NCBI GenBank assembly: GCA_004431415.1
Contig: QPMI01000430.1
Location: forward strand, 6,109-70,108
DNA: 64,000 nt
Origin: Cyanophora paradoxa CCMP329
Taxonomy: Eukaryota > Plantae > Glaucophyta
Direction: 5' to 3'
Shown here: positions 24,380 through 57,785 of the stretch, piece after piece
Numbering within the stretch: position 1 is the stretch's first letter
Layout of the letters: each line of letters begins with the position of its first letter
The notes under the pieces: model-generated
Database searches by the model: none
The model's input: only the letters and a program-made list of their open reading frames with translations
Told to the model about the DNA's origin: nothing
Program-made: the position numbers and the translations under genes

Positions 24380-27736
<3,357 letters not shown>

Positions 27737-28133: not shown

Positions 28134-28504
28134 GAGATCTAGACGGGTCCGACTCGTCCGAGTCACCGACGCACCGTGGTCCGTACGCGTGGTCCCGGAG
28201 TCCGTGGACCGTGACCGTGGCCCTGACTGTGACTGAATCAGTCAACCCGAGGTTCAGTCAGGCTACCGTGCAAAAGCCGGGGAAAATGACCAGGAAATGG
28301 CAGGAATTGACCCAAGCGCGATCTATCTACTTCATTCAAGTTGCCAAGCATCAGGCAAGGCACGTTATGCGAGCAGAGAGGACGAGAAAAGGAGATTCGG
28401 CCCCCGCCTAGCGCAAGTCAGACTCCATTAGCCTCTTTCCATGCACATGGGCGCGCGGTTTCTTGAAGATTTCGACGACAGAAGATCATTTTTTGGTCGA
28501 CCCA

Positions 28505-28589
28505 ACACATAAAGAAATACAAATTTAAATCCCTCCGCTTCGCGCTTCGCGCTTCGCTCCTGGATTTAAATTTGTATTTCTTTATGTGT
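28505..28589. other. Terminal 85-nt hairpin (28-bp perfect stem, loop with 3x GCTTCGC)
   Basis: 28505-28532 acacataaagaaatacaaatttaaatcc pairs with 28562-28589. Confidence 0.95.
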
Positions 28590-28778
28590 AAATTAATCGA
28601 AAATATTTAAAAAATAAATCAAAATGTTTAATAAAATCAATTAAATTTAAATAAATTCGATTAAATTAATTGGTATAATATCAATTAAATTATGATTTTA
28701 TGAAATTTATATAAATTTTTGATAAATTACGTATTTCTCAATTGATTCAATGATATAAACGCGATATAACACAGAGTT

Positions 28779-29190
28779 GCATTATGTCCAATTAAACAAT
28801 CGATGAGATTGCGGCATATTTTGTTGGAAGAGATGGTTACTGCATTATGTCCAATTAAACAATCGATGAAATATCGGATGAAAATAATTCACTCGTTACT
28901 GCATTATGTCCAATTAAACAATCGTTGAGATTGCGGCGTATTTTGTTGGAAGAGATGGTTACTGCATCAGGTCCAATTAAACAATCGATGAGATTCGGGT
29001 AAGCTTTTTACTGTATCGAAAATGACCCCAGAGTTGCATTATGTCCAATTAAACAATTGATAAGATTGGATTCTGTTTTTTACTGTAAAAACATTGTATC
29101 TTAGGTGTATCAATCTCAATTGAATTAATCGATGTAATTTTGTTGGAAGAGATGGTTACAGCATTATGTCCAATTAAACAATCGATGAGA
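28779..29190 (+). repeat. Array of ~30-bp direct repeats in the TIR (iteron-like)
   Basis: gcattatgtccaattaaacaatcgatgaga at 28779, 28842, 28901, 28964, 29036 and 29161, plus a degenerate copy near 29107; mirrored in the right TIR. Confidence 0.9.
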
Positions 29191-29491
29191 TTTCGCTGAG
29201 ATGAAAACGGTTAGGCACTTTTTTATCGTGATCGGCGGATATCATTTAGATATAAAACGGGCTACTGAAATGGAGCGGGTTAATCGAAGTAGGCACTTTT
29301 TTTAATCGCGGTAGGCAGCGTAGGCGCGTTAGGCACTTCCTTATCGAGAATTAAAAAGAAGTCCCAAATACATCAACTTGTGTTTTTCAAAACGTTGATT
29401 TTATTTTTTATAGAGAGTTTCCAGAAAAGGTGCCTAAGTGCCTAACGTCAATTAAAAGTGCCTAACTTCAATTAAAAGTGCCTAACTTCAA

Positions 29492-29896
29492 TTAAAAGAT
29501 CCCTGAAAAGATCTCTGTTATTCTCTCATCTATGTTAACCAACCCTGAAAAGATCTCTGTTATTCTCTCATCTATCAATTTAGATATTACGGAGGTCTTA
29601 CTTTGCGCTTCGGTTCCGCAAGTGAATACATCAATCGCTAACATTCCTTGATCAGAGTAGCAATGAGCGGTGCAATGGCTCTCATCGAGAAGTAATACCA
29701 TCGCAAAACCCGGTGGCGAAACACCACCATCGAAAATCTCGCAATGCTTGTGAACAACTCGGATACCTTGTTCTTGAATAATAGTTTGTAAAAATTGCAT
29801 TAACCATGTTGTTGTGGTTTCCAAGTTCTCCAATCCCACCATCAATGGATGATTGAACTTGTAATCTAACATTACATGGGAACCGCGATGATTCAT
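29492..29896 (-). CDS. speD: S-adenosylmethionine decarboxylase proenzyme (pyruvoyl-dependent, small bacterial/archaeal class)
   Basis: G.H..LD N-terminus, LLLDESH autocleavage site, and H.Y...G..AIDVFTCG motif. The C-terminus is rearranged. Confidence 0.88.
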   Translation of the reverse strand: MNHRGSHVMLDYKFNHPLMVGLENLETTTTWLMQFLQTIIQEQGIRVVHKHCEIFDGGVSPPGFAMVLLLDESHCTAHCYSDQGMLAIDVFTCGTEAQSKTSVISKLIDERITEIFSGLVNIDERITEIFSGIF

Positions 29897-29936
29897 TTAT
29901 GAATTATATAGAAAAATAAAAAACGAAATTGGTAGG

Positions 29937-30092
29937 ATGCGAACCATCTTAGCGAAAGTATTTCCGTTTGAGTTGGTCGATATCATAATGCTCCATTATC
30001 ATAAGACATGTCCGAATTGCTTCGATACTTGCATTATTACAAGAAACAAGACTGGTAAAGTCTTAATTTCTTTATCCCGTCTCCATATGTAA
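29937..30092 (+). CDS. Small hypothetical protein (51 aa)
   Basis: ATG..TAA ORF MRTILAKVFPFELVDIIMLHYHKTCPNC.. filling the speD-methyltransferase gap. Confidence 0.4.
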   Translation: MRTILAKVFPFELVDIIMLHYHKTCPNCFDTCIITRNKTGKVLISLSRLHM

Positions 30093-30116
30093 TTTGTTTT
30101 TCTTTATCTATGGTAA

Positions 30117-30932
30117 ATGAAGACTCACTTTTACCATAAGTATGTCGGTAATAAATACAATGAAATGGATACAATCAATCCTTTTATCGATTTAGAAGGC
30201 ATAAATAAAATAATAGAACCATTTTGTGGTTCAGGTGCATTTAGTTTCTATCTTTGGGAAAAGCATAAAGAACGTTTTGATTACTTTATGAATGATAACG
30301 ACGAAACACATATACTTTTTTTGAATACAATGAAAGACCCTAACAGTAAAGTAAAACTTTTAGATAGTCTTCAACAGTTCGAAGCAGTAAGCAATATAGA
30401 AGAGCATAAAGAAGTTTATAAGAGTTTTCTACAACATGATCGTAAAGATGTAATGGATTACTTAGCCCATCATTTCTATCTTCTTAAAAACAGCGTTTTA
30501 AATGTTAAAACCCTCCGTGATTTCAAAAAACGGAACGTGAAGTTGAGTGCATATACAACTCTTAAAAAGAAGATACCTTACGATGATTTCCTACAAGATG
30601 TTAACTTATCTCTTGGGGATTATCTGGATATTGTGTTGAAATACAAAGATGATGAGGATGCATTCATATTTCTTGATCCTCCATACGTTAATAGCAATAA
30701 TGACTTTTACGAAAATGTAGAATCCGATTTGGAAAAATTCTTTTTGGATTTAGAAGATCTATTGAAGACCGCGAAATGCAAAGTTATGATGGTTGTTAAT
30801 GATGCTTTATTAATGAAATTGCTATTTAAACCCTTTATTCGACATACATATGGTAAAGTGTATGGTATATCAAAAAAGAAAAGGAAACATCTCATTATGA
30901 CTAACTACGAAATCAATCAAAATACAACATAA
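30117..30932 (+). CDS. DNA N6-adenine methyltransferase (Dam/D12-like)
   Basis: Y.G.K start, EPFCGSG AdoMet-binding motif, and FLDPPY catalytic motif. Confidence 0.92.
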   Translation: MKTHFYHKYVGNKYNEMDTINPFIDLEGINKIIEPFCGSGAFSFYLWEKHKERFDYFMNDNDETHILFLNTMKDPNSKVKLLDSLQQFEAVSNIEEHKEVYKSFLQHDRKDVMDYLAHHFYLLKNSVLNVKTLRDFKKRNVKLSAYTTLKKKIPYDDFLQDVNLSLGDYLDIVLKYKDDEDAFIFLDPPYVNSNNDFYENVESDLEKFFLDLEDLLKTAKCKVMMVVNDALLMKLLFKPFIRHTYGKVYGISKKKRKHLIMTNYEINQNTT

Positions 30933-31185
30933 TTGGCTTCTCTTCTATTACTATTCCCCATGTAGTTTTTTTTCTGTATGCATGTGAGTGTTTCTTAGAA
31001 CACTGTCGGCAACCTGACCCCTTAATGTGATTAAATCCGTAGGTTTGGAACGTCTTATTACATTGTAAACATCTAACGGATACCTTCTCTTGTGCTTTCT
31101 TATAGACAGTCTCACTGTAATCGAATTTAGCATCACCATGAATCATAATCGCAGATTCAATAAATCTTTTAGTTTTTTCATCCAT
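30913..31185 (-). CDS. Zn-ribbon protein (endonuclease-associated DNA-binding repeat)
   Basis: FI..A..IHG..FDYS...Y.....KV...C..C...F....NH..G.GC..C motif common in large DNA virus/phage endonucleases. Confidence 0.65.
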   Translation of the reverse strand: MDEKTKRFIESAIMIHGDAKFDYSETVYKKAQEKVSVRCLQCNKTFQTYGFNHIKGSGCRQCSKKHSHAYRKKTTWGIVIEEKPIMLYFD

Positions 31186-31208
31186 TCCTCTATATATACC
31201 TTAGAAAT

Positions 31209-32039
31209 CTATGGTGCAGTATCTGACCCAAAAATGGGAAAATATCGGTTTGTGCCGTAATACTCCGCATATGTATTCTGTTTTGCGATAGCATCGGTTC
31301 TTTCAGCATAGAGAATGCATTTGTAGATACCAAACCTGGTAGCTCTGACTAAAAACTGGTAATCTTCTAATCCAAAATTCACACCATGATATGCAATACC
31401 GAAATTATCGTAAGGAGTGATAACCACCGCAATATTGGGCGTTCCGCCTTCCACTTGACAGACAGCATAAACATCTGGTGGGATATCGACAACCACCTTG
31501 TAGTGGTCACCAATCTCAACAAGAGAATCAACTACTGATGTCTGCTCATTCACAACAATTGGGAAGATCTTGATAATATATGGTGCATTCATACTGGGGA
31601 CATAGGTGCGAATTCTGGTGTTGGGATCAATGGGATTGGGTTGATCATTTACGAAAAGAGGCGCACCAACAGCTCCACCAATCCGAAGACCATCACCAAT
31701 ATATGCTCCCCCCGTTTTGCAGTTAATAGCTCCCGACCGAGATTCAAAAGAATAAGTAGAAAGAGGATCACCATAACTGTCTGGGTCTCCATAGTGGGCA
31801 GAAAAGTTTGCATTTGTGACAAGGAGTTTCGTTGTCTTAACTATACCATTATTTTTATCACACCTGAGTTCTTGCAATCTCAGTTTGTGGGTGGAACCAA
31901 ATGTATTCATTGTGGGTTGCACTTCTGTGGATTGGAGACCTTCTACATCATCAAAGGTAGCATGCTGCAAAACGTGATTCGCAGGTGCTGCTAATGAGAG
32001 TTGGGGTGTAATAATTCGTTCTGGTATTGGGGCAGCCAT
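31209..32039 (-). CDS. Putative virion fibre/adaptor protein, paralogue B
   Basis: LRLQELRCDKNNGIVKTTKLLVTNANF N-terminal domain shared with 32607-33461 and 3333-4328. Confidence 0.6.
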   Translation of the reverse strand: MAAPIPERIITPQLSLAAPANHVLQHATFDDVEGLQSTEVQPTMNTFGSTHKLRLQELRCDKNNGIVKTTKLLVTNANFSAHYGDPDSYGDPLSTYSFESRSGAINCKTGGAYIGDGLRIGGAVGAPLFVNDQPNPIDPNTRIRTYVPSMNAPYIIKIFPIVVNEQTSVVDSLVEIGDHYKVVVDIPPDVYAVCQVEGGTPNIAVVITPYDNFGIAYHGVNFGLEDYQFLVRATRFGIYKCILYAERTDAIAKQNTYAEYYGTNRYFPIFGSDTAP

Positions 32040-32062
32040 TTTACATTAAAGTGATATATAAT

Positions 32063-32557
32063 TTATGGGGTTGGGTTATCAATCACATTCAAATATGCAA
32101 ACTCTCCTTTAATTTCGATTGCCCGGGCATTGTATGCTCTTGCAGCGTCTTCTTCTTTTTCAAAGTAGCCAATTATAATTTGTTTATAGTTGTGTCTGAT
32201 TTTTGCAAGCCATTTCTTCATTCCTTTACTCCAAGAGACACCTTTGTATTTACTGGTGGATTCTTTTGTAGTTTTGGGTTTGTTCATCTGATTCTGTGCA
32301 TGTGTGCATCTCCGAAGATTGGTTTTTCTATTGTCCAACTTGTCGTGATTGATATGATCAATCTGAATCTTAGGGTCAATTTCAGACATTGCATATCTGT
32401 GCGCCCTGGTGAGTGTTTGACCAATTCTGCAATTTACATAACCTCTCGTATCAATTGACCAAGTATACCTCTCAAACCGTTCTTTATCTTCATAATCAAT
32501 TTTCATAAACTTCCCATGACCTTTTTTTCCTGAGAGAGCGATTAAAGCATAATCCAT
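32063..32557 (-). CDS. HNH endonuclease with C-terminal AP2 domain (free-standing homing endonuclease)
   Basis: IDHINHDKLDNRKTNLR HNH motif and SKYKGV..W.A.I......GYF..EEDAARAYN AP2 motif. Confidence 0.92.
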   Translation of the reverse strand: MDYALIALSGKKGHGKFMKIDYEDKERFERYTWSIDTRGYVNCRIGQTLTRAHRYAMSEIDPKIQIDHINHDKLDNRKTNLRRCTHAQNQMNKPKTTKESTSKYKGVSWSKGMKKWLAKIRHNYKQIIIGYFEKEEDAARAYNARAIEIKGEFAYLNVIDNPTP

Positions 32558-32606
32558 GATGGTGAATTCTTATACGTTTTACCAAGCTATTTTTTATATC
32601 ATTTTT

Positions 32607-33461
32607 TTATGGGGTGGGGTCATCGATTATATCTGGTTCCGAATAAAACCCTGTTGTGAAGATATCTGCAACGTTTACCCCTCGAAGTGCCGAAACAGCT
32701 GCTATATCTGTCCTCAGTCCCATAATCATAGTATTGTAAACTCCAACCTCAGTTACAAACAAATCATAGGTAAATGTCAAATTGTTATAAACACAATATC
32801 CTCGACCGAAATGGTTTGATGCTTGAACAAAGAATAGGTAATTATGACCTGTTTGATTGTTGTTTGCTCTGCACATAGATAGCATTGCTGTGGGAAGCGG
32901 AATATTTCTTCTTACTCGATCAGTTCCTGTTATAATAACCAATTCCGAATTTTCAAGAGTGACAGAGGAAGCAACATAGAAATGTAGAAAAGGTTGCTGT
33001 GCAACTGGTGTATAGAAACGTATTCGTTGGGGATTCTCTACATTTTGTTCAAGAGTATCTGGGACATCATTATACGAAATTGAGGATGAAAGTTGACCTG
33101 AAATTCGACAGCCACCCCCAATAAATGCTCCTCCTGATCTCACAGTAACAGCAGCAGAATTCTTATCGAAATCAAGGGCTTTCAGATCAACACTGTAAGC
33201 ATCAGGACCTCCATTGGTAGGCTGGAAAAAGTTAGCATTTGTGACAAGAAGTCGAGTTGTTTTAACCACACCAGAATTCTTATCAGCTCTCAGCTCTTTA
33301 ACTCGAATAATCGAATTTTTATCAAAGGAGTTCCCATTGGAGTTGGGTCTCTCTGTGGATTCTAAACCACGAACCTCATCATTTACTTCATGCTGGCGAA
33401 AGTGCATAGCAGGGGATCCAAGGGAATATATTGGAAGTTGAACTCGATTATATTCACCCAT
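32607..33461 (-). CDS. Putative virion fibre/adaptor protein, paralogue A
   Basis: RVKELRADKNSGVVKTTRLLVTNANF; similar along its length to 31209-32039. Likely start at ATG 33461. Confidence 0.6.
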   Translation of the reverse strand: MGEYNRVQLPIYSLGSPAMHFRQHEVNDEVRGLESTERPNSNGNSFDKNSIIRVKELRADKNSGVVKTTRLLVTNANFFQPTNGGPDAYSVDLKALDFDKNSAAVTVRSGGAFIGGGCRISGQLSSSISYNDVPDTLEQNVENPQRIRFYTPVAQQPFLHFYVASSVTLENSELVIITGTDRVRRNIPLPTAMLSMCRANNNQTGHNYLFFVQASNHFGRGYCVYNNLTFTYDLFVTEVGVYNTMIMGLRTDIAAVSALRGVNVADIFTTGFYSEPDIIDDPTP

Positions 33462-33500
33462 TGCTTCTTTTACTAAGAAGGAAAGAAAAATAAACACCAT

Positions 33501-33809
33501 TCAAGCCAAAGCAATTAGATTGGATCCAAGAGATTGGTAAGCGGTTGTTAGACATTGGATGTTGGATGTCATCGCTTTGAGGTTAGAATCACATTCACCA
33601 TATTTTGTTACTGGGTCACCATAAGCCGATTGCGCGAGGACATTAACCAAGAGGTTTTTATATTCATGAACAACTGGGGACAGTTTGTTAGTTTGCTGAA
33701 TTGTTTTTTCGACGTTTTGTAGCGCGGCTACAAGTTTAATAGTATCGAATGCAAGAGCGACAGGCTCAGTAGTAGTGGAAGGAGATCCACCAAGTGGATA
33801 GGTCGCCAT
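33501..33809 (-). CDS. Hypothetical helical protein (102 aa)
   Basis: ATG-start ORF packed between fibre genes. Confidence 0.55.
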   Translation of the reverse strand: MATYPLGGSPSTTTEPVALAFDTIKLVAALQNVEKTIQQTNKLSPVVHEYKNLLVNVLAQSAYGDPVTKYGECDSNLKAMTSNIQCLTTAYQSLGSNLIALA

Positions 33810-33812
33810 TTA

Positions 33813-36800
33813 CTATACTGTGACATTTTTAATTTGGTCTATTTGACTTTGGAGATTTTCACATGTTTGTGTTAAATCTTTGCATTTCTTAGATAACTCT
33901 TTAACGGCTTCTATGAGAACTGGAATTAAACCCGTGTATTCGAGAGAAAGGTAACCATCTTCTTTTGTGACACTTACAATTTCTGGTATTACCTTTTCTA
34001 CATCTTGCGCAATTAAACCTAATTTTGTTCCGTCTTTTTCACTCCCAATTCGTTTAAAACTCACTCCTTCTAATTTTTCGATTGCTGAAAGAGCGCCGGT
34101 TATCTTTTTAATATCTGTTTTGTATCTTCTGTCACTTCCTTGTGTTAAATAATTGTTTATCCACATCCGCCCGTCATGATCGATCCAACAAATATCAGAA
34201 TCTAATTCATTTCGAAATCTTATTGGATAAGTTCCTCTTCCTTTCAAATATGTAGAACCATTGTTACCGAAATGAATTCGATTATATCCATCACTGGAAT
34301 TAAACCAAGTCTCCACAGCTCCTGTTAAGATATTTGGTTTACTATAAACATTATTCCAATGAATATAGCCGGTGTGACCACCATAGCTATGCCCAACCCA
34401 TATTTTCATATAACTTATACCCATAATATGAACTCTTCCTATCTTTGGTCTAATCCGAATAGTGAGGAATCGATTACCAAGATGTATTGGAACATTATTT
34501 ATACCACTGTGGTTACCATCAGGCGATGTGGCGTATGGTTGATAACTATTCACTGATGTAATAAAAACTTCATTCCCTTGTCTATTAACTCCCCAAATTT
34601 CAAAAAGTCGTGAGTTAGTCCAAGGTAAATAGGTTAAAAATGCTGTTCCTGTGTGGTATCCATCGGGTATATCGAAGTCAATCCAAGCGGTAGAAGTTTG
34701 GTCATCAGATTGATTATTATGGACATATGAACCATAATTATAATGTGGATCCCATGCTGAACTCCACGCCCATGTCCAACCCTCAGAACATCTATTAAAT
34801 GCAATGCCTCCTACTGTTTTATCTGCTGTGTGAAACTTTGGGACATCATTACCGTTTATTTGGAGTTTGGTAGTAGCATTAATAGTAGGTGCTGTAATAG
34901 TATTATTCACCCAAAAGTTACCATTGTTATAAGATTTTAAAATGGCTGTATCTGCTGAGTTTCTGAATTCAATTGACACAGCATCACCATTTGGTCTCCC
35001 TCGTATATATGTGCAATCGCCATTACCAAACCAAATTCGCTCGACTGCATCTACTGATTTTAACCATGTATTTGTTGGCCATGTTGCGGTTTGTGGAAGG
35101 TCTGCGGCTGAGTAAAATGATGGTTTACTAAATACATTATCCCAAGAGATCATGCCCAATTCATTATCTGTTGCTCTCTGTCTACTCCAACCGAAAACAC
35201 CCGTTAGATGAATGCGACCTTTTCGACCTTGAACATAAATATATTTGTAAAACTCACAATTGATTGAGGCAAACAAAATACAATTGTGTGTTCCATCTTG
35301 ATTAACTTCCTGAATTACTTGATAAGCATTTACACGCTTTAAGAAATGTTGATATCCATTAACAGTTTGCCCGTAGATATCGAAATATCTACAATTACCC
35401 CAAGGCATGTGCTGAATATAAAACGATTTCATACCTGTCGGAACAACCCACCTCATCCAACATCCGCTACAATCATCATCATTTTGTGGTGTTGTATAAC
35501 ATCCTGTTTGTCCGGTTCTTGGTGTCCATCCTGTAACAGTCCAATTATTTGCGCTTCTATCTGATGAAACCACATCTAATTGGTCGAAATCGTAACCTTT
35601 TGGTATTGTGGTTCCGCCAATTTGTAAAGTGGTAGCATTCACAGTTCCTGTTACAGTTCCACCTGTTAGAGGTAGATAATTAGCAAGTGCCGCCGTTAAA
35701 TCGGTATCTGTAACAAAATCTGTAACAGCTAACTGTAATTCTGTATTTGTAACATAATCTTTGTTTTCTAAGTAATCATCTGTAACAACACCGGAAAGGG
35801 TTGTATTGTGTAAGTTTTTCGCCGCCATTCTCTGATTGACTTCTAAGGCGCCACCTGATAACGTTTTTATCCACGCCATCTCACATTTTCCGTGATCATC
35901 TGTGGGTTGTCCCACAACAGGAAGGTAGTTTACAACTTTCTCCCTTGTGAAAACTATCTTAGGTCTTGCTCCATCATATGCGCTTTGATCTGTTACATTT
36001 ACTTGTATCGCTGCTGAAAAATCCGCTACTTGTCCTGTTTCACCCGGGTGATAATTCGTGACATAGATACTGGGGAAAGTATCATTAATTCCTACATTAA
36101 AATCGCCACTATACACTCCATTTACGATTGGATCCCTGGGTAATCTTACTGCAAGAGTTCCCACCATCGGTGTGCCGTCTTGACCTGTAAATGAACCATT
36201 GAGACTAACATAATGATCATTCAAAAATAGCCTTTCAGGTGTATTACTCGATTGGTAAAGTGTGACTCCATTAAAAACGTTTCCGATTGCATTCAATTGG
36301 GCAAAAACTGGCTGTTCGTCTATTTCGTCCCAATTGTGCCTATGTGCAAAATCTGTGATTTGCGCTTTTGTGTGAGTATGGTCAAAATCTGTGATTTGCG
36401 CTTTTGTGTGAGTATGGTCAAAATCTGTGATTTGCGCTTTTGTGTGAGTATGGTCAAAATCTGTGATTTGCGCTTTTGTGTGAGTATGGTCAAAATCTGT
36501 GATTTGCGCTTTTGTGTGAGTATGGTCAAAATCTGTGATTTGCGCTTTTGTGTGAGTATGGTCAAAATCTGTTATTTGCGCTTTTGTGTGAGTATGGGCA
36601 AAATCTGTGATCTGATCTTTGGTGTGTGTGTGGTTTTGTATCCAACCTTGAACCACATTAGAGGTTGGATGATGAGGTAAATTTGCATTGCTTATAACTG
36701 TAAGGTAATCTATTACAGTATCAGGTGAGGTTATTTTTAATCCTCTGTAAATATTCAGAGTCTGGGTATGAGTGAATCCATATTTTTGTTGAATGTAATA

Positions 36801-39703: not shown

Positions 39704-39752
39704 CCCTGCATGCTCTACATATAGAGATTTATTAAATTTCGATAAAGTAAAG

Positions 39753-46400: not shown

Positions 46401-46694
46401 GGCGCGATAGGTCAACCACGAATACGCTTGATTCATTGCTTGACCATCTTCAATGTCCGGGTCAATTGCTCCTAATCTCTGTCCTTCATCCATGAACTCC
46501 TCCATCCTCTGCATGCGATTGTAGAGGTCATTTGCAATCTCAGTGAGTTGTCCTAATCGCGGTCGTCTATCTAAGATGGCGGCTTCTCTATCGTATTCCG
46601 CTTCGGTGATCTCACCTGTAACTAAGAGAGTTCCTAACAATCCAAGTATTTCATTTTTCTTTTCTTTGATCAGTCTGTTCGTTTGGCGGGGCAT
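43414..46694 (-). CDS. polB: Protein-primed family B DNA polymerase, split by a 1-nt frameshift at ~44930
   Basis: Motifs DANNLYG, KLMNNAIYGK, HDTDS and GLRSKLYA. Polinton-type N-terminal N..DCFKYAI..GHY region and C..C..VRDHCH.SG..G.AC..CN Zn insert. Confidence 0.93.
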
Positions 46695-47067: not shown

Positions 47068-47265
47068 GTAGGCGCTTGTAGGCAGTTAGGCACTTCTTAA
47101 TCGAGAATTAAAAAGAAGTCCCAAATATATCAACTTGTGTTTTTCAAAACGTTGATTTTATTTTTTATAGAGAGTTTCCAGAAAAGGTGCCTAAGTGCCT
47201 AACGTCAATTAAAAGTGCCTAACCTCAATTGAAAAGTGCCTACTTCAATTATTCAAGTGCCTACT
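47068..47265 (+). repeat. Internal third copy of the inner TIR segment (TAGGCAC/GTGCCTA motif block)
   Basis: Near-identical to ~29310-29490 (atcgagaattaaaaagaagtcccaaata...gtgcctaagtgcctaacgtcaattaaaagtgcctaac). Confidence 0.92.
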
Positions 47266-47328: not shown

Positions 47329-49718
47329 TTACTCATCATCATCATCAAACTCAACAACAGTAGGTGTCTTATCAATCTTCTTCACACCCTTGTAGCCACG
47401 ATCATAACCAGTTCCAACCTTCTTGCGAACTGCATTCTTGTCATATTTCGCTCCAAGCAAACCCATCACAGTTTTAATGCGATTTGCAGACATATTCAGT
47501 CTCAGTTGCTTGATCTCTTGCTCAACCATCTTGGAAGTTACAGAGTCGGATGAATTTCGAGTGAATTCGAACACTGATCTGATCAGAGACATTTCATCAC
47601 CTGCATCTTCCCGGAATTCATTAATATCCTCAGCAACCTTCCAGAAACCACGAATTTCTGAGATTTGTAGGCTTCAAACACCATCCATTCGAATGCTCTA
47701 ATTATCTCAGGACTTTTTAGCAGAACACTCTTGATATCTTCCGAAGCCAATCTCACACAAGGAGAGTTCATTTCCTCAACAGTCTTTTGATCAACGAATT
47801 TGTGGGGGTGCTTGAACAATACCATGGTTTGAAGGGTATCAGATGGGGAAATGGGTGGAACATCATTCATGATCATCCACAAACGACTTTGGAGGCGAAT
47901 ATTGACCTCATTTTCATATAGAACACGCATGCATTGAACATCACCACCAGATTCCTTCTTTTTGATCATTGCACCATTCACCTTAATATTTGTGTTTGAG
48001 ACATCGAATTTCATCTCTTGGGTGAATGTCAGACGACGAAATTCACAAGGTTTCATCCACTTTAACTTGGAGGTATCGTTGTCATCTGAGTTCTTATTCA
48101 GCAAGAATGCCTCCCCACTGATGGTGTGCACATATCCACTTCCCCAGGTATTTTCATTGAGATTCACATAAACCCCTTACCACAATTGCGTTCACCAATT
48201 GATAATCCCCACTGTTTATCTTCGTATTTCCCAGCCATTGCACGAGCTGTAAATTCCAGAGCAGAAGAAATCGAATCATTTCCGAAAACGGGTTCCAGAA
48301 TCTTGTCGAAAAGGGTTTGAATATCCGAATCAGATGGCTTGATCACATATCCATCTTTGTCAACAAGAAGATCCCTCTCGATTCGAGTGGTAGAATAGAT
48401 CTTGTCACATTTGTCCCATGGTGTGAGCTTCTTTGTCTCGAAATCATACACACCATTTCGGTAGCACAATTTTCCAATGGTCGATGACCACATAATATCA
48501 TTGTAGAACACACGATTATTGGGCAGAAATGCTTTGGCTGTCTTGATAATTCGATCTGCCCCAGTAAGATTGGTAGAATATGGCTTCAAGTTACCTTTGT
48601 CATCCTCCTTGAACATATAGCACTCCATGCACAATTTCAACATTATATTGTAGACCATTGTGGAATCATCAGTCCACAGAAAATCGTCTGTCTGAGCGAA
48701 TATACGACCATCAGACATGACCACTCGCCCTCAATCGATTTAACAAATGTGAGAGCAGCTTCACGATCATCCCGAACAATATTAAGAGGAGAGGATACAC
48801 TTTTTGAATTTGTTGGAATCGTAAATCCTTGATCCATTGGTTTAATCATCAACTCAATCTTGTAGCCAGTGACATTCTCAATATACTTGGTAGCATCACA
48901 GAGAATATTGTGGAGACGAGTTTCGGGTAATTCAGGGCTTTTTCAACCATGCAACCATCATAAACGAGAACGCCAACTTTTACAGCAAGTGAGGTTAAAT
49001 ACTGACAAAGCGCAATCAGACATTCATTCTCCAATTTGCAGAGAACCATATTAATGGTTGAACCAAAGATGTTATACTCCTTCTTTCGCTTGCAAATCAA
49101 GAAGAAGTTGTGGTTTTCGGGCATGCTTGCAATTTGAGCGTGAATTCCTGTGATTTCGTTCTTAACTGCTTTGAACTTGGGTGGTTCAGCAGTTCCTTGT
49201 TATCAATTGAGCCCCACCCCGTTTACAACAGAAAGAAACGCTTTCTTGATATCTTCGCGAGAAAGTCCCGATTTCTTGCTTATATCAGCAATGATACTAT
49301 CACGATTGTCGACATAATCAGTAAGACCCTCACAAACGATTTCATTTTTTTCACAATACTGAATGAGAAGTGTGGGATGCGCATTTTTCATATCGATATC
49401 GTAGTAGAAATCGCGAGCAAGAGTGTGGCGGAATTCTCTGGGCATTCCTTGCATTGATGCTTGCTTCTTCTTGATGTGTTCAAGATTCACGAAATAACGA
49501 CCAGTATTATGCTTGCATTGATGATATTTAACTTCAATGCGCCCATCTCGCTTCAAATCCTTGAAATAACGTTGGAGAAGGGTGAGAGTAGCAGTTGCAT
49601 CAATATCAGGTCGATACTCCAAAGTCTCGAAATTATCAATCAGGTATTTGAGAGTGGAGCGATCCACCTTCTCAAAGAGAGCGATTTTAAGTCCGTTCGG
49701 TTGCTGAGAGTTGAACAT
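47329..49718 (-). pseudogene. PolA-like primase-polymerase (TVpol-type) fused to an SF3/D5-like helicase, broken by multiple frameshifts
   Basis: GRY..SMQGMPREFR..YDIDMKNAHP (PolA motif A-like), LVYDG (motif C-like), Y.NGVYDF (D5-N) and GERNCGKG Walker A, spread over 6 ORF fragments. Confidence 0.8.
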
Positions 49719-50362: not shown

Positions 50363-50617
50363 TTATTTATGATCGTTTTGCGCAAACGATCGGCGACGGA
50401 CAGTCTCTGTTTCTGTAACGGTGACTGTCTCAGTTGTTATCGAATCTTGTGATTGCCTTCGCCCTCCATCGCTTCCACCATCTGAGAAATCCATTTCGAA
50501 TTTCGTATCGCAGCAATCATTGTGACAATCGGTTATGCAATGCATCTCAAACATCTCAATGATCTTTTTCAGAAACTCCATTGATTCCCTCTTTAAACAA
50601 TATATAATTAAAGCCAA
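50363..50617 (-). CDS. Hypothetical Cys-containing protein
   Basis: ORF in the co-oriented gene run; the start may be the internal Met. Confidence 0.45.
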   Translation of the reverse strand: MALIIYCLKRESMEFLKKIIEMFEMHCITDCHNDCCDTKFEMDFSDGGSDGGRRQSQDSITTETVTVTETETVRRRSFAQNDHK

Positions 50618-51339
50618 ACTCTCCGCTTGTATGCTGTGGGAGCTACACCTTTGTCGACTTCCGCTTTGGTTGCGCCAGGTTCAACTGTTCCCTTTTGGGT
50701 CTTTGTCTTCAACTCATCTACCGCTTGTTCATCAATTTGAGTCTCCTTCTTACCAATAAACTGCTTATCGGGAAGACCGGTAATACCCATTCGGAATACT
50801 TCTTTGCGCAGCATTTCCTTGATTTTAGCGCGTTCTTTCTTCTCAGTTACATACTGTTCAAGAGCGCTTGATTTCGCTTCCAGATCCTTTAATTTAGCGG
50901 TCATCTCATCCCATTGCGCTTTCGGGATTCGGTGGATGTTTTGAGTTGGCGCAACCTTGTAAGTAACTTCACCAGCCATCGATTGAATTACCTTATCGGA
51001 TTCTTTGGAAACACCTTCACCCTTGCGAGCGAGTGAAAGATCTTTTAGACCAAGTTCACGATCATCGGCAGCACCGATAATCCGGCGCGCACCTTCACCG
51101 ACCGCCTTCATCTTCGAGACTTCCGGCGTAATGTTCAGTTGCTCACTTTGGGAGGTTTGCGGCGCTTTATCACCGGGCGCTTCTTCATACGCCGCATTTA
51201 AGGGGTCTTCTTCCTGTTGCGATGGTTTCACTTCGCTCATTCCGTTGAATTTCATGGGTGTAGTGTTGAGAGATCCGTGACTTTCACCGCCGGAATATGA
51301 CATAGCACCAGCGGGAACACCTCTACGTTTCGGCGGCAT
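50608..51339 (-). CDS. Hypothetical charged protein (possible core protein)
   Basis: 243-aa ORF with an MPPKRR basic N-terminus, downstream of the ATPase. Confidence 0.6.
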   Translation of the reverse strand: MPPKRRGVPAGAMSYSGGESHGSLNTTPMKFNGMSEVKPSQQEEDPLNAAYEEAPGDKAPQTSQSEQLNITPEVSKMKAVGEGARRIIGAADDRELGLKDLSLARKGEGVSKESDKVIQSMAGEVTYKVAPTQNIHRIPKAQWDEMTAKLKDLEAKSSALEQYVTEKKERAKIKEMLRKEVFRMGITGLPDKQFIGKKETQIDEQAVDELKTKTQKGTVEPGATKAEVDKGVAPTAYKRRVWL

Positions 51340-51367
51340 TGTATATTTATAACATACAGAGATAATT

Positions 51368-52150
51368 TTACAGTCCCCTCTTATATCGCATCAACTTATT
51401 CGTGTGAACAGCGCTTTTAATCTCTTTCGGCGCTTCCTCCTTCTCAGGCGGTTTTAATTCATCTTCTTTCTTTTTAGGTTTGCGATGGAAACGCGGGAAA
51501 TCAAAATCACCAACTAATTCCGCTTTATCAACATAATACCCTACGTTATATTTGAATGACGTATAAACGATAAATTGGTATGAGTGGACATACTCTTCAA
51601 ACATCTTATAGAAATCTTCTTTACGGGGAAACGTAGAATACTCTTCGGCGAAAGCTTCTAATTCTTTCTGATTACTTGCACAAACCATAATTACGATATC
51701 ACAATTACAGCGAATCACACTTGCAACCTTGCGCAGTTTTTGCGAAATGCAGACGAGGGAACAGTTCACATGTCTTGATCTTACGAAAAGCATTCCCACT
51801 GTTTTGTCTCGTGTTAAATCCAATTGGTCATTTTCAACCATATCTTCTAAAATAATCAGCATATGGTTAAGTTCTTCTCCTCTTTCCTTCTTTTCTTCAC
51901 GATCTTTAAGAACCTTAGAAATGTATTTTGCATCCCAGGCGCCCAATTGAACAGTAGCCGCTTTATCCCAGTAATGCGTGAAACTTGTAGCGGAGATAAT
52001 TAACGTTGTATCGATCTTTTTCGCATCATGAAGCTGTTTCAAATAATATTTTACCGCCTCAGTTTTCCCGCACGCCGACTTCCCAAGTATCAATAATCGG
52101 AACGGTGGCTCAATCATTTCAGCGGCATTAAACTCTTCTAAATCCACCAT
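51368..52150 (-). CDS. A32/FtsK-family genome packaging ATPase
   Basis: LILGKSACGKT Walker A, LIILED Walker B, RSRHVNCSLVCISQ and IRCN. Confidence 0.93.
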   Translation of the reverse strand: MVDLEEFNAAEMIEPPFRLLILGKSACGKTEAVKYYLKQLHDAKKIDTTLIISATSFTHYWDKAATVQLGAWDAKYISKVLKDREEKKERGEELNHMLIILEDMVENDQLDLTRDKTVGMLFVRSRHVNCSLVCISQKLRKVASVIRCNCDIVIMVCASNQKELEAFAEEYSTFPRKEDFYKMFEEYVHSYQFIVYTSFKYNVGYYVDKAELVGDFDFPRFHRKPKKKEDELKPPEKEEAPKEIKSAVHTNKLMRYKRGL

Positions 52151-52210
52151 GGCGTTGTAGATCTTCTTAATAAAGATAGATAAAAATAACGAAATGTGAC
52201 TGATAATGGT

Positions 52211-53608
52211 TTACATATTTATACGCCTTATTCCATCTTTGTCCAAAATTACGAACGAATGCATGAGAGCGCGGACGTTAACAGTAATTGTGCGATCAGC
52301 AGGAAGATACAGAGTGAGGAACGATGAAGACGAGTTCGTAAGGTCAACATATCCAGATTGGGCAATGTTGCGAATCGCCTTCTCACCATCAACACAGAAT
52401 GGAAGACCAGTAAGGACGTAACGGTTTGCTTCCTTGTCCATATTCGAGCATTTGAAGGCATCGGCGATGAGTTCCGCACCTTTAAGTAGCGGGATTGGCT
52501 CAGTTGAATACAGACGCTGTCCGTTAATCTCACAGGTCATCGTGATATCCTTCGCATTCGCAAGCGTTTTAAGGACGCTGTGAGAACCGTTAGAAGAATC
52601 GACACCATCAGCATCACGAACAGAGACAAGAAGAGCATAAACCAGACCAGAGATTTGGCTAAGATTGATTCGGTTGGGTTGAGTGTTACCTTTCGCAGCA
52701 ACACCAATAGCATCGACGAAACCGATATCGAGAGCAGGAATAGCCATCCCCGTGGTCTTAACCTTCTCAATAACAGTTGCAAACAGTTCATCTGAAACGT
52801 TGATAGCATGCATGTAGAGACGAGGAGACTTAATGGAGATGTAATGGGTCATTGGTGGAACAGTTCCAGCAACTTCGAACCCAGTAATACCGCCAGTGGT
52901 AATGTTTTGACCGACATTAGCAAGAGTTACACCAGTAGCGCTTCCGAGACCGTCATTTGCGGTTTGATCCGCAGCGGTTGTCACAACTGGAAGAGCGCGA
53001 CCGCCATAAGAAGTTTCAAGATATCCCTTGTTAGCTTCTTTGAACCAAACAGTGATTACGGCTTCACCGCTCAGAGCGCCAAGAGGTAGGTAGTGGTTCA
53101 ACCACGGCACCGGAATTTCAACGAAGAAAGCGCCACCTTTACGGTTGGTTCCGTGAGCGGGAATTCCATGAAGCATTCCCATTGAACGCTTCTTTTTCGC
53201 CAGCTGATCCTCAGAATAGTAGACCAGTGGGAAAATCGCAAGAAAATCGCTTGGGACGTGGTAGGTATACGATCCATACGAGAATTCAAGACGCTCTACA
53301 AGCGCACCGATGGGACGGGTGTAACCATTTCGCACCAGGTCGGTATCACCTTCAAAAGCCGTTAGTTCGGGAAGGTCGAAAGCGAGTTCGATTTTACCAA
53401 CAAAGTTGTAGCGGGGAAGTTTGAAAGAAACGCGTTGACCAACGTTGTTGTCATAGGTTGTCGAGGGACTAACGGTTACCAGAACGGGTTTCGTCTTCGA
53501 TTCGAGACCAAGCATAAGCGAGTTATCGAGGAAGAACGCTTTGGCTTCCTCGGGCGTTGTTAGCGCCTCTTTCAGAGAAAGACGTTGAAGGGTCGAGGTA
53601 ACATCCAT
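52211..53608 (-). CDS. Double jelly-roll major capsid protein
   Basis: 465 aa, beta-rich, with F.LPR..FVGKIELAFDLPEL and LVERLEFSYG as in PLV/NCLDV capsids. Sits between the ATPase and penton genes. Confidence 0.82.
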   Translation of the reverse strand: MDVTSTLQRLSLKEALTTPEEAKAFFLDNSLMLGLESKTKPVLVTVSPSTTYDNNVGQRVSFKLPRYNFVGKIELAFDLPELTAFEGDTDLVRNGYTRPIGALVERLEFSYGSYTYHVPSDFLAIFPLVYYSEDQLAKKKRSMGMLHGIPAHGTNRKGGAFFVEIPVPWLNHYLPLGALSGEAVITVWFKEANKGYLETSYGGRALPVVTTAADQTANDGLGSATGVTLANVGQNITTGGITGFEVAGTVPPMTHYISIKSPRLYMHAINVSDELFATVIEKVKTTGMAIPALDIGFVDAIGVAAKGNTQPNRINLSQISGLVYALLVSVRDADGVDSSNGSHSVLKTLANAKDITMTCEINGQRLYSTEPIPLLKGAELIADAFKCSNMDKEANRYVLTGLPFCVDGEKAIRNIAQSGYVDLTNSSSSFLTLYLPADRTITVNVRALMHSFVILDKDGIRRINM

Positions 53609-53662
53609 TCTGTTTTGCTTTTACTATACAAAAATATAAAAATTCTGTGAATGATCCTTAAT

Positions 53663-54667
53663 TTACGCGAATCCCGCAATATTTGGATAGAAGGGGTGGG
53701 TCTCTCTCATTCTCATTTTGAAATACTCATAAATTGGATCACCGGCGGGTTCATCACCATAACGGATTTCGAATGTCAGATGCACAGGTTGACCTTCGAA
53801 ATCAATTAATTCATTTTGAGCATTCACTACATCTACCGAGAGTTGTGATAGTGACATCTTCTTATTATAGTATTTATACAGCGGATTTGCTTCGGTCGAA
53901 TTGTAAACAACGTGTTCCGCAAATTCTTTATCTTGAACCATAAGTTTATGGAAGTATCCAGTTAGGAGACCATCGGCACATTGGACGAGGTCACCCAGTT
54001 CTTTTACTCTCACAAAAAAGACGTTATCTTTGCAGGTTTCAGTGGGGAATGTTGAGATAATACCGTTTACATTTGCACCTGTAAAAACGGAGCTTGTATC
54101 TGTTCCATAGGTCTGTGATTTAATAAACTTGTTTCCCCAGCGTCCAGCATCCAAACCCAAGATTCGAGCATGTCGTAGCGCTTTTTCGATTGCAGAAACA
54201 GAAGGATCTTTTGCATATGAGAAGCAAATATAGAACTCCACAGGAGCATAAAAGATTACTTTTTTTTGGGTTACATCCCAACCACAGCGAATTGTAGAAG
54301 GAGGCGAGAGATTCTCAAAACGGTTATTGATTCGGGCAACGAGTTGCTGATGAGTATTGATTGGGGTTTTTAGACCTGCACCAGGTCTAATAGAACGCCA
54401 ACTATCATATAGAATCTCAGGAGCATTTGCACCGGTGGATGTGGACTTTTGGCTGAAATTGATAATAAAGGCATCCTCTATTGTTGCATCCCCAGGTTCT
54501 GTTTCACCGCTAATGAGTGGGATGGAGTTATAGAATTCAGCGGAGACGAGGCGAACCGCTCTTACATTCTCATACGTCTTTGGAAGATCCGCAACAAATC
54601 GTGATGTTGGAGCATCCAGATTAGGTATTGTTTTGAAGGAAGACACTTCAACGTATTCCACAGGCAT
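53663..54667 (-). CDS. Minor capsid (penton) protein 1
   Basis: F...LP..YENV..VRLVSAEFYNS ... LSQLSVDVVN..NELIDFEG..HLTFEI single-jelly-roll signature. Confidence 0.8.
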   Translation of the reverse strand: MPVEYVEVSSFKTIPNLDAPTSRFVADLPKTYENVRAVRLVSAEFYNSIPLISGETEPGDATIEDAFIINFSQKSTSTGANAPEILYDSWRSIRPGAGLKTPINTHQQLVARINNRFENLSPPSTIRCGWDVTQKKVIFYAPVEFYICFSYAKDPSVSAIEKALRHARILGLDAGRWGNKFIKSQTYGTDTSSVFTGANVNGIISTFPTETCKDNVFFVRVKELGDLVQCADGLLTGYFHKLMVQDKEFAEHVVYNSTEANPLYKYYNKKMSLSQLSVDVVNAQNELIDFEGQPVHLTFEIRYGDEPAGDPIYEYFKMRMRETHPFYPNIAGFA

Positions 54668-54695
54668 CTTCTTTTATCTATAACCATATAATAAA

Positions 54696-55598
54696 ATGAT
54701 TCGGCTTGTCAATGTCGATAGTAGAGATCGATTAGATGGACAGAAAGAAAATGCTTACAAGGTCTCACTTACCACACCAATAACCAGACCGCGACAGTGT
54801 CGTATCTTATATGCAGAGATTCCCAACAGCATTTATAATTCGATTGGAACCGATTATATTATAGTTCGTTATAACATTGGTGGTTTCATCCTTAATCAGC
54901 AAGTATTCCCATTACCAAGTGGTTACATAAACCAAGGACACTTTGGAGTTACTCAACCATATAATTACGGTTTAAACTACGAAGTTCTTGAAAATACATT
55001 CTTTAAGATATACTACAACCCGACAACATACAAGTTAGAGTTTTATAGCAGCGTTCCATTCGAAATAGCAGCGTCAAACAATAGAATCGCCAAACTACTT
55101 GGTCTTGCTTCAACATTATTGTTAAGCCAGCAACACAATTTAGAAGATAACAGGTCTGTATTCGCTCCTGAGAATTTCTTATCGTATGCAGGAAGACCAA
55201 TAACACCTGATCACCCACAATGGGGAATTACGTTTGAAGGTGTAGATCCAGTGCCGTTGCAACACAAAGCAACAAGTCCAAAGATGGCGGATATGAACGC
55301 TGAGCAATACTTGTATATGCACATCAAAGAACTCTCTTCTTTTGCATCCAACCACAATATAGTCCCGAAATCGCAACCGCAGAATCAAGGCGCGATCTTG
55401 CGATTACAATTGAGTCAGGACATCGGGAAGTATGTTTACCATAGCGGAGAGCATGGTGAATACATAAAAATAACAGACAAAAACCTTGTTTTTCGTGAAT
55501 TAACAGTTGAGTTTCGTGATTATTTTGGTGATCTTGTAGATATGAATGGTATCGATAATTCGTTTCAGTTGGAGTTTGTAGCTATTGGATACGATTAA
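54696..55598 (+). CDS. Minor capsid (penton) protein 2
   Basis: VDSRDR..Y.V.L..PI......YAEIPNS ... LTVEFRDYFGDLVDMNGIDNSFQLEF. Confidence 0.82.
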   Translation: MIRLVNVDSRDRLDGQKENAYKVSLTTPITRPRQCRILYAEIPNSIYNSIGTDYIIVRYNIGGFILNQQVFPLPSGYINQGHFGVTQPYNYGLNYEVLENTFFKIYYNPTTYKLEFYSSVPFEIAASNNRIAKLLGLASTLLLSQQHNLEDNRSVFAPENFLSYAGRPITPDHPQWGITFEGVDPVPLQHKATSPKMADMNAEQYLYMHIKELSSFASNHNIVPKSQPQNQGAILRLQLSQDIGKYVYHSGEHGEYIKITDKNLVFRELTVEFRDYFGDLVDMNGIDNSFQLEFVAIGYD

Positions 55599-56199
55599 CT
55601 ATTGGGATATATGGTTTGAAGATATCAGCGACAACACCATTCTGATCCTCTGTATACCATCTGTTGTTTTCGCGAACCCAACGAGCGCCATTTTGTTTAA
55701 GGTATTTACGTAGAGTCGCTCGGTTCACAATCTTCCATCCATGCTCTTCAAACTTAGCATGATAAGCACGAAGATCTCTTGGAATGTGGAAATAGTAACG
55801 TTCACGATGTTCTTCTTGTCCATAGCATATCCCAATTGCATTAATTACGTCATCGTGAGTCTTTGTAGTGTTGAAAAGAAGATCATGAAAATTAACAACA
55901 ACGATGAAATCAAGTTCAGCATTACGCACTTCATTAAGATGGCTAAACTTACCATGATCGTTATAATTCACATGATTATAGAAGAACCGATCATCGCGAG
56001 TTCTCGCACAAATCCGATCAGAATTTCTTGGAAAATAACCAAAACAAACCATTTGATCCATTCCAGGATAAGAGTATGTTCCAATCTTTCGATGCAAAAC
56101 CTCAATAGTTTCAGCAAGATCAAGAATATCCTTCACACCAAATCGCATTTCAGCAATCGGAACCGAGAAGATCGGCTCACCTTCGAAGAGATACGCCAT
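55582..56199 (-). CDS. Hypothetical protein (205 aa)
   Basis: ATG ORF next to the right TIR with an upstream AAAAAATGA motif. Confidence 0.6.
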   Translation of the reverse strand: MAYLFEGEPIFSVPIAEMRFGVKDILDLAETIEVLHRKIGTYSYPGMDQMVCFGYFPRNSDRICARTRDDRFFYNHVNYNDHGKFSHLNEVRNAELDFIVVVNFHDLLFNTTKTHDDVINAIGICYGQEEHRERYYFHIPRDLRAYHAKFEEHGWKIVNRATLRKYLKQNGARWVRENNRWYTEDQNGVVADIFKPYIPIVNRIQ

Positions 56200-56299
56200 G
56201 ACACTGAATTACGTCTGAGAAAATCTTTTACCCGGTTTACTCTATACTGTCGCTTCTTCCTTAAATCATTTTGGGTTGCCCACGAGCATCATTTTTTTG

Positions 56300-57672
56300 A
56301 AAGTAAGACCTCCGTAATATCTAAATTGATAGATGAGAGAATAACAGAGATCTTTTCAGGGTTGGAGAAAGCGGAGAAGCAGATAGCAGCGCGATTTCCG
56401 AGTTAATCACACTGTTAATGGTTTGGTAGGCACTTTATATTTCTCAGATAATGAAAGTGAATATATCATATCTCTATGATTCATAGATGTCTTACTGAAT
56501 ATCGTTTGGTAGGCACTTTTTAATTGAAGTTAGGCACTTTTAATTGAAGTTAGGCACTTTTAATTGACGTTAGGCACTTAGGCACCTTTTCTGGAAACTC
56601 TCTATAAAAAATAAAATCAACGTTTTGAAAAACACAAGTTGATGTATTTGGGACTTCTTTTTAATTCTCGATAAGGAAGTGCCTAACGCGCCTACGCTGC
56701 CTACCGCGATTAAAAAAAGTGCCTACTTCGATTAACCCGCTCCATTTCAGTAGCCCGTTTTATATCTAAATGATATCCGCCGATCACGATAAAAAAGTGC
56801 CTAACCGTTTTCATCTCAGCGAAATCTCATCGATTGTTTAATTGGACATAATGCTGTAACCATCTCTTCCAACAAAATTACATCGATTAATTCAATTGAG
56901 ATTGATACACCTAAGATACAATGTTTTTACAGTAAAAAACAGAATCCAATCTTATCAATTGTTTAATTGGACATAATGCAACTCTGGGGTCATTTTCGAT
57001 ACAGTAAAAAGCTTACCCGAATCTCATCGATTGTTTAATTGGACCTGATGCAGTAACCATCTCTTCCAACAAAATACGCCGCAATCTCAACGATTGTTTA
57101 ATTGGACATAATGCAGTAACGAGTGAATTATTTTCATCCGATATTTCATCGATTGTTTAATTGGACATAATGCAGTAACCATCTCTTCCAACAAAATATG
57201 CCGCAATCTCATCGATTGTTTAATTGGACATAATGCAACTCTGTGTGAATTTTTGCGTTTTACGATAGAATGGGCGGTGGATTACTACAATCGTGATTAT
57301 ATCACAAATTTATGTTCCGTCAATCGAGATTATATCGAATTTGCATAAAATACATATTAATCGCGTTTATATCAATCGCAAAATACGTATTTTACATTTA
57401 AATACAAATTAATCGCGTTTATATCATTGAATCAATTGAGAAATACGTAATTTATCAAAAATTTATATAAATTTCATAAAATCATAATTTAATTGATATT
57501 ATACCAATTAATTTAATCGAATTTATTTAAATTTAATTGATTTTATTAAACATTTTGATTTATTTTTTAAATATTTTCGATTAATTTACACATAAAGAAA
57601 TACAAATTTAAATCCAGGAGCGAAGCGCGAAGCGCGAAGCGGAGGGATTTAAATTTGTATTTCTTTATGTGT
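56300..57672 (-). repeat. Right terminal inverted repeat (terminal hairpin at 57588-57672)
   Basis: Reverse complement of the left TIR; carries two blocks absent on the left. Confidence 0.93.
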
Positions 57673-57785
57673 GACCCACGTCAGCTTTAGATGGAAAAAG
57701 CCCACAGGGGGGCACGCGCTCCCAGCAGGGTGCTGTATGGGAGATAATGGGACTGAGAAAACGTCAGTCAGCCAAAAGCTGCCAG

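Follow-up and report, generated by a model that had tools for sequence, protein, structure and literature searches.

The 64,000-bp window analyzed here (positions 6,109 to 70,108 of the forward strand of contig QPMI01000430.1, assembly GCA_004431415.1, Cyanophora paradoxa CCMP329; all coordinates below are those of the window) contains an endogenous Polinton-like virus (PLV). The element lies between two exact copies of a 6-bp target site duplication (TSD), GACCCA, at 28499..28504 and 57673..57678 of the plus strand; its limits are therefore 28505-57672, and the length of 29,168 bp agrees with the roughly 29.2 kb proposed by the first-pass annotation, which was made from the letters alone. The GC content is 0.31 to 0.46 in the ten element blocks measured, about 0.47 to 0.51 in the immediate flanks, and 0.7 to 0.8 in host genes. 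The left terminal inverted repeat (TIR; 28505..29504, plus strand) spans about 1,000 bp and the right one (56511..57672, minus strand) about 1,162 bp. They had been described as near-identical, which is true of their sequence, the 261- and 736-nt arms of the left TIR being 100% complementary to the right end, but not of their lengths, as about 162 additional bases in the right TIR (57247-57408) have no left counterpart. Because the arms carry zero substitutions over about 1 kb, a recent insertion is suggested, as had been claimed.

Each end of the element carries an identical palindrome with a perfect 28-bp stem (28505..28589 on the plus strand at the left end), and these terminal 85 nt are predicted to fold into a hairpin (-29.8 kcal/mol, z -10.5) that none of 200 shuffled sequences equaled; the first 100 nt are the same at both ends. 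The ends begin with a short AC repeat, which we take to be of the type used in protein priming. Further inward, a 19-bp repeat is present in six copies in the left TIR (28784..29184, plus strand) and in six more in the right TIR (12 matches against 0 expected). Three iteron-like blocks were found in addition. Block 1 (29212..29484, strand not assigned) consists of convergent 9-bp repeats flanking an AT-rich core, block 3 (56427..56803, strand not assigned) occupies the inner end of the right TIR, and block 2 (47068..47264, plus strand) is an internal, 93 to 94% identical copy of the TIR inner block situated between the two replicase genes, pPolB and TVpol-SF3. The 9-mer matches 19 times in the window against 0.35 expected, and all matches fall within three clusters, at the inner end of each TIR and at 47087-47263; in every cluster the copies converge on the AT-rich core, and many are spaced 20 to 21 bp apart. 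The internal block has diverged from both TIRs. By analogy with iterons, the blocks may constitute an origin, a regulator, or a protein-binding array. A sigma-70 scan scored the internal block at chance level, Rfam gave no match, and a literature search found no report of iteron-like arrays in Polintons. Three features are additions to the first-pass annotation: the hairpins at the ends, the TIR block repeated internally, and the missing pPolB exonuclease described next.

The pPolB gene (43414..46694, minus strand) is assembled in two pieces separated by one frameshift near 44930. The protein can be aligned over its full length with Polinton-type enzymes, which are also its nearest full-length relatives (35 to 39%), and the earlier label "mavirus-like" is thus misleading. 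It retains the vOTU Cys/His residues, an Endonuclease-VII-like zinc finger, and polymerase motifs A to C; the ExoI-III motifs are lacking, the acidic motifs of Exo I and Exo II being replaced and the Exo III region, in which the protein is about 90 residues shorter, being deleted. An equal state, with eroded motifs and the deletion, is found in P0004, a 1,083-aa protein encoded in one open frame that is 41% and 47% identical to the two pPolB pieces. Among the 120 matches listed, Exo motifs I, II, and III are present in 115, 118, and 113, respectively, and all three are missing only in P0004; the marker spacing is 34 residues in both pPolB and P0004 versus a median of 127 in the 115 measurable matches. 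The two proteins form a long-branch pair (SH-aLRT of 100) in a quick tree of 34 of the 36 intended rows without the mavirus, adenovirus, and PLV outgroups, from which only this pairing is used, long-branch placement in it being unreliable. Because the intact P0004 shares this state, the alignments indicate that exonuclease loss is a trait of the lineage, not damage to this copy, and the domain layout suggests that it arose independently of mavirus. The accessible text of Krupovic et al. 2024 (PMC11161782) describes exonuclease loss in the pPolB of mavirus and in pPolB-SF1 fusions, always together with a helicase, and our literature searches found no report of a Polinton-type pPolB without an exonuclease. 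Scans of IMG/VR and JGI contigs with pPolB yielded 8 and 10 loci; the 8 are on ordinary Polinton-like contigs whose seven aligned full-length polymerases keep the Exo motifs, and 7 of the 10 have at least one Exo motif, the other three being not judgeable.

Adjacent to pPolB, an open frame (41828..43228, minus strand) encodes an rve (DDE) integrase with the catalytic triad D-D(35)-E (NF033577, E = 5e-14; PF00665, E = 2e-4, below the cut-off). On one IMG/VR Polinton-like contig (L007:2740-4248), an adenain-like protease is apparently fused in front of an rve integrase in a single 503-aa open reading frame (ORF).

On the other side of pPolB, beyond the internal iteron-like block, lies the TVpol-SF3 gene (47329..49718, minus strand), which is assembled as six overlapping pieces. 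A D5-like SF3 helicase forms its rear part (D5_N, E = 0.006; phrog_1156 primase, E = 7e-6; TIGR01613, weak), and the front part carries putative PolA-like motifs. The combination of an rve integrase and pPolB with a TVpol-SF3 gene, one of the earlier claims, is supported. Eight frame changes were counted in the element, six in TVpol-SF3, one in pPolB, and one in the fibre gene, a count that treats two adjacent in-frame stops as a compensating pair; seven of the eight are in the missing-base direction. The description of the element as complete and intact does not hold for these genes as assembled, with pPolB carrying one frameshift, TVpol-SF3 in six pieces, and the fibre split near 37610, and any potential for reactivation, as had been proposed, would hinge on these breaks not being real. 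According to the accessible part of Bellas et al. 2023 (PMC10120064), stops in endogenous viral elements of protists are often artifacts, and in another protist the breaks vanish on strict re-mapping. Decay after insertion fits badly, because the TIRs are unmutated. We therefore lean clearly, if not strongly, toward assembly errors rather than decay, and the TVpol-SF3 gene is probably intact in the cell. The homopolymer context of the breaks was considered as proof of sequencing error and was rejected as uninformative when set against random windows.

The capsid module occupies the right part of the element. The major capsid protein (MCP) is encoded by an open 465-aa frame (52211..53608, minus strand) that has no sequence match in Pfam, PHROG, or PDB, and a search of 1.8 billion representatives yielded just two homologues; the closest database MCP is a Cyanophora paradoxa protein of 57 to 60% identity. 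A structural model built from three sequences (pLDDT of 44) was compared with known folds. Foldseek against the PDB placed PBCV-1 and iridovirus capsids on top (best PBCV-1 match, E = 4e-8), and in VIA ranks 1 to 9 are all double-jelly-roll proteins (Z scores from 10.7 to 7.4, root mean square deviations of 9 to 13; the top match at Z 10.7 has a deviation of 12.9 over 289 aligned residues), with mavirus (Z 6.5) and Sputnik (Z 5.8) below the giant-virus MCPs for this low-confidence model. The named matches in BFVD are mostly giant-virus MCPs, and the Atlas features score 0.98 to Capsid_N clusters. As Foldseek, VIA, BFVD, and Atlas agree despite the poor model, the protein is best modeled as a double-jelly-roll capsid whose top structural matches are giant-virus MCPs. 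The outcome that the first-pass annotation had named as refuting it, an MCP candidate without this fold, thus did not occur. A Polinton MCP profile made from six sequences, with no positive control, did not detect it. The neighboring A32-type packaging ATPase (51368..52150, minus strand; PF04665, E = 4e-12, above the cut-off) has Walker A and B motifs and one homologue (64%). The earlier claim of an intact integrase, ATPase, and MCP is confirmed. For the pentons, also called intact, the outcome is divided: the probable penton, or minor capsid protein (53663..54667, minus strand), matches a 6-sequence Polinton penton profile weakly (E = 0.001), its structural model (pLDDT of 37) being too poor for use, whereas the possible second penton (54696..55598, plus strand) has a penton-like sequence pattern that profile and model searches did not show. 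Two further minus-strand ORFs in this region, of 243 aa beside the ATPase (50608..51339) and of 205 aa (55582..56199), have no match in Pfam, PHROG, or NCBIfam. No adenain-type protease had been recognized earlier, and a profile built from six Polinton-type proteases, with held-out recovery of 6/6 at E ≤ 3e-4, likewise finds none (best E = 0.88 among 492 six-frame segments); a cysteine protease of the virophage type was not found with Pfam or the Polinton-type profile.

The left part of the element carries the fibre and putative entry genes. A phage-type fibre with a C-terminal S74 chaperone is spread over two ORFs (33813..39703, minus strand; PF13884, E = 8e-16, and PHROG tail-fibre matches). 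The downstream frame stays open to 37628, 132 bases 5' of its ATG, and so overlaps the end of the upstream ORF; a single gene of about 1,960 aa, interrupted by a frameshift near 37610, is therefore probable. In-frame tandem repeats are present in the fibre, namely, eight 36-bp copies of a phage tail repeat (36347-36634) and about three 66-bp copies (38472-38695). Next to it, a patatin-like phospholipase fused to a discoidin domain (39753..41309, plus strand; PF01734, E = 8e-17, and PF00754; motifs present) is likely an entry protein. The first-pass annotation had assigned about 10 kb to fibre and entry functions; a block of that size exists (31209-41309), with domain support for the fibre (5.9 kb) and the patatin-discoidin gene (1.6 kb) only. 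The block also includes two paralogous minus-strand ORFs of no assigned function, 31209..32039 and 32607..33500 (33% identity, E = 3e-36), on either side of an HNH-AP2 endonuclease (32063..32557, minus strand; PF13392, PF00847, and phrog_99, E = 5e-40). To its left are a small zinc-finger ORF of the homing-endonuclease kind (30913..31185, minus strand; phrog_681, E = 2e-10), a D12-class adenine methyltransferase with a DPPY motif (30117..30932, plus strand; PF02086, E = 4e-17), and a SAM decarboxylase (29492..29896, minus strand; PF02675, E = 4e-12), an enzyme that goes unmentioned in the literature matches listed (20 of 229). The 3' end of the SAM decarboxylase gene looks rearranged, with a local duplication at the left, and 66 bp holding its apparent original C terminus recur at the right end (56300-56365); the TIR therefore seems to have formerly extended further inward.

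Outside the element, the flanks hold GC-rich, intron-rich calcium-pump genes, a gene style in keeping with the Cyanophora-type host to which the closest MCPs point. The sequences directly beside the element (27600-28504 and 57679-58800) share several stretches of 43 to 149 bp with 67 to 93% identity; the virus thus integrated into a tandem host repeat whose copies have diverged. Three host duplications (8674-12332, 19427-23450, and 59832-64000), which are 89 to 94% identical, each carry part of a P-type calcium pump gene, extending furthest at 5400-9700, and a neighboring gene; the host flank also has a (TA)n tract of about 100 bp (26258-26358). Positions 1-5400 hold the terminal part of another low-GC, virus-like element, which has fibre-like ORFs and runs off the left edge of the window. 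One of its ORFs (3315-4325) is paralogous to the ORFs starting at 31209 and 32607 (37 to 39%; E from 1e-12 to 3e-16). This second element and the main one have no TIR sequence in common.

Codon usage separates the genes of the element into two classes. NCG codons make up 11 of 137 NCN codons in the helicase and 46 of 457 in the fibre (low class), compared with 76 of 292 in the integrase and pPolB and 72 of 313 in the capsid genes (high class); the helicase is lower than both the integrase-pPolB pair (p = 9e-6) and the capsid genes (p = 1e-4). This low codon CpG, together with the TIR-derived block at the 3' end of the helicase gene, suggests that the helicase and the fibre block were acquired from sibling elements. 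The opposite order, in which pPolB and rve were captured by a TVpol element, is a less favored alternative.

Taken together, we consider with moderate confidence that the locus holds a PLV, likely of recent insertion, which is bounded by exact 6-bp duplications; its Polinton-type pPolB has no proofreading motifs, and its TVpol-SF3 gene, although broken as assembled, probably has an intact frame in the cell. The rve integrase would insert the linear genome and produce the 6-bp duplication. After excision, pPolB would copy the genome from its ends by protein priming, the vOTU domain freeing the terminal protein, while the SF3 helicase would unwind DNA ahead of the non-proofreading polymerase, as proposed for mavirus. 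The TVpol-SF3 gene and the fibre block are likely later arrivals through recombination with siblings, and acquisition of the helicase may have carried along a piece of the sibling's TIR. Particle formation would involve MCP, penton, and ATPase but no maturation protease, and attachment would be mediated by the fibre together with the patatin-discoidin protein. Until a trigger arrives, possibly a giant virus, host CpG methylation probably keeps the copy silent. In C. paradoxa, CpG methylation of viral genes and giant-virus insertions are reported in the accessible part of Sarre et al. 2025 (PMC12344493).

Several observations weigh against this interpretation. Polishing may inflate or homogenize the TIR identity. 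The concentration of six of the eight frame changes in the helicase, 10% of the coding length (p = 2e-5), is unlike uniform error, and a homopolymer run of at least 3 is found in 7 of the 8 break windows versus 66% of random windows. Repeated searches found no intact TVpol-SF3 homologue, and apart from the putative PolA-like motifs, TVpol has an Atlas DNA_pol_A lead of just 0.80. The MCP model is poor (pLDDT of 44 from three sequences). Furthermore, the putative pairing of the lost exonuclease with a helicase is based on this element alone.

The most serious competing explanation is that a replicase replacement is in progress and that TVpol-SF3 is a true pseudogene, having decayed after takeover by a pPolB and rve cassette. 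The clustering of the breaks in the helicase (6/8) is in keeping with it, and two adjacent in-frame stops can be dismissed only by assuming a compensating frameshift pair. In the accessible parts of two preprints, terminal palindromes occur mainly on elements with non-pPolB replicases (10.64898/2026.07.28.741278), which would make TVpol the native enzyme, and pPolB and the DDE integrase travel together (Barth, Ha and Aylward 2026, 10.64898/2026.10.13.758929). However, with TIR arms of about 1 kb free of substitutions, such decay must predate insertion; seven of the eight frame changes share one direction; and the gene whose codon CpG departs from that of the capsid genes is the helicase, not pPolB. 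We thus regard a true pseudogene as unlikely, although worth keeping in view.

A less probable alternative gives the terminal hairpins the leading role: the 85-nt palindromes would serve as fold-back primers for TVpol-SF3, with the exonuclease-less pPolB as a passenger. This fold-back priming model has been proposed for Halocafeteria elements (10.64898/2026.07.28.741278, accessible part), whose terminal palindromes are found mainly with non-pPolB replicases, and here a perfect 28-bp stem is present at both ends, and both TIRs, as well as the DNA next to the helicase gene, contain iteron-like blocks. On the other hand, pPolB keeps the vOTU Cys/His residues and all polymerase motifs across 41 to 47% divergence. 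The short AC repeat at the ends, presumably of the protein-priming type, also argues against hairpin priming, which we consider improbable. Finally, an assembly chimera, in which two siblings were joined at a common iteron-like block, could give the two-replicase layout and would be in line with the 93 to 94% identity of the internal block to the TIR inner end, with the hundreds of related capsid genes in the likely host (PMC10120064, accessible part), and with the start of the error-rich stretch beside that block, but it is very improbable, since the outer ends match 100% and share the same 6-bp duplication, which misjoined separate insertions would not, and since the internal block has diverged from both TIRs.

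Returning to the preferred reading of a recent PLV with a probably intact helicase, a bolder extension is possible but doubtful: the element would represent a live glaucophyte virus lineage with a giant-virus-like capsid and a Polinton pPolB that lost proofreading independently of mavirus and the pPolB-SF1 fusions and is run with a captured TVpol-SF3 loaded at three iteron arrays. If true, the lineage would show the loss of the exonuclease and the gain of a helicase at an intermediate stage, in an alga that can be cultured, and it would be inducible as the first glaucophyte PLV particle. These two changes are known from their end states, mavirus and the pPolB-SF1 fusions (Krupovic et al. 2024, PMC11161782, accessible text), and the element appears to be an independent halfway case, in which the exonuclease scaffold is present, its motifs are gone, and an SF3 helicase adjoins. 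It also displays replicase mosaicism, with the junction visible, within one TSD-bounded element. Because Cyanophora grows axenically and methylation data have been published, expression, induction, and polymerase fidelity are accessible to experiment. Otherwise, the element is an ordinary one, an endogenous PLV among hundreds in the genome.

Much of the surrounding picture is already in print, including two-replicase PLVs, phage-type fibres, patatin-discoidin genes, terminal palindromes, and the capsid family, and the element itself may be present in the 2023 element maps or in preprint supplements. Bellas et al. 2023 (PMC10120064) report 366 MCP hits in the Cyanophora paradoxa genome, in two unnamed "iterative HMM" clusters of 272 and 94; Table S2 of that paper includes P0001, the C. 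paradoxa MCP of 57 to 60% identity mentioned above, with an HHpred value of 98.5% to an iridovirus MCP, and a closer, 465-aa C. paradoxa MCP of which 55 of the first 60 residues equal those of the element MCP by eye. The proposal of a distinct lineage accordingly stands insofar as the capsid cluster is unnamed and is weakened by the close MCP relative already listed there. According to Bulzu et al. 2025 (PMC12220804), S74-chaperone fibres are ubiquitous among PLVs, and 11 glaucophyte PLVs have discoidin domains, which either stand alone or are joined to patatin; related Cyanophora contigs are mentioned by Starrett et al. 2021 (PMC8502044), and multi-replicase polisuviruses with internal repeats, one of them from Cyanophora paradoxa, are described by Barth et al. 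2026. No true relative was found among IMG/VR and JGI contigs with the MCP, the ATPase, the helicase pieces, or the terminal 28-mer, and 16 element proteins had no exact match in the protein collection. With respect to classification, the element has the double-jelly-roll MCP and A32-like ATPase of PLVs and, like them, no maturation protease; of the Polintoviricetes features, it has the protein-primed PolB, rve integrase, TIRs, and 6-bp duplication and lacks the adenain-type protease. Failing the protease test for Polintons and virophages, it files, on gene content, as an unclassified PLV. Pfam, PHROG, and NCBIfam scans, which included no specific profiles for them and left several ORFs unannotated, gave no matches to an HUH endonuclease or VLTF.

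The element shares its MCP family with the endogenous PLVs of Cyanophora (PMC10120064), which are recorded as counts and MCP sequences, the replication module, exonuclease loss, and ends being undescribed in the accessible parts of that work. Like the polisuviruses (Barth 2026), it has two replicase classes, pPolB with a DDE integrase, and non-TIR repeats that set one replicase off; however, the Cyanophora case in that preprint consists of three tandem elements with an AEP gene, whereas here pPolB and TVpol-SF3 are combined in one TSD-bounded element, whose internal repeat is a stretch of its own TIR. Palindromes inside TIRs beside the target duplication and an RVE integrase are shared with the PLVs and virophages of Halocafeteria seosinensis, but their palindromes go mostly with non-pPolB replicases, and both replicase types are present here. 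Zoravirus VC102, VC218, Zephyrvirus, and the Mriyaviruses have a comparable size (20 to 30 kb) and a giant-virus-like MCP (Bellas and Sommaruga 2026 preprint, which describes RVE-bearing groups with giant-virus-like capsids); RVE is common in VC102 and VC218, and pPolB or TVpol is variable among these small-virus groups. Maverick/Polintons and adintoviruses share the pPolB with vOTU, rve integrase, A32 ATPase, TIRs, and 6-bp duplication, but the element is without adenain and exonuclease motifs and has an additional TVpol-SF3 and a phage-type fibre. Mavirus and its endogenous forms resemble it in rve, a pPolB with reduced exonuclease, a separate SF3 helicase gene, TIRs, and target duplication. 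Unlike mavirus, the element lacks a maturation protease, its helicase bears a putative PolA-like domain, its MCP is nearer to giant-virus capsids (Z 10.7 versus 6.5, from a poor model), and its pPolB is of the Polinton type, keeping an eroded exonuclease scaffold and the Endonuclease-VII-like zinc finger. The element thus resembles a Polinton in its integration, a PLV in the building of its particle and, as far as its gene content predicts, mavirus in its replication.

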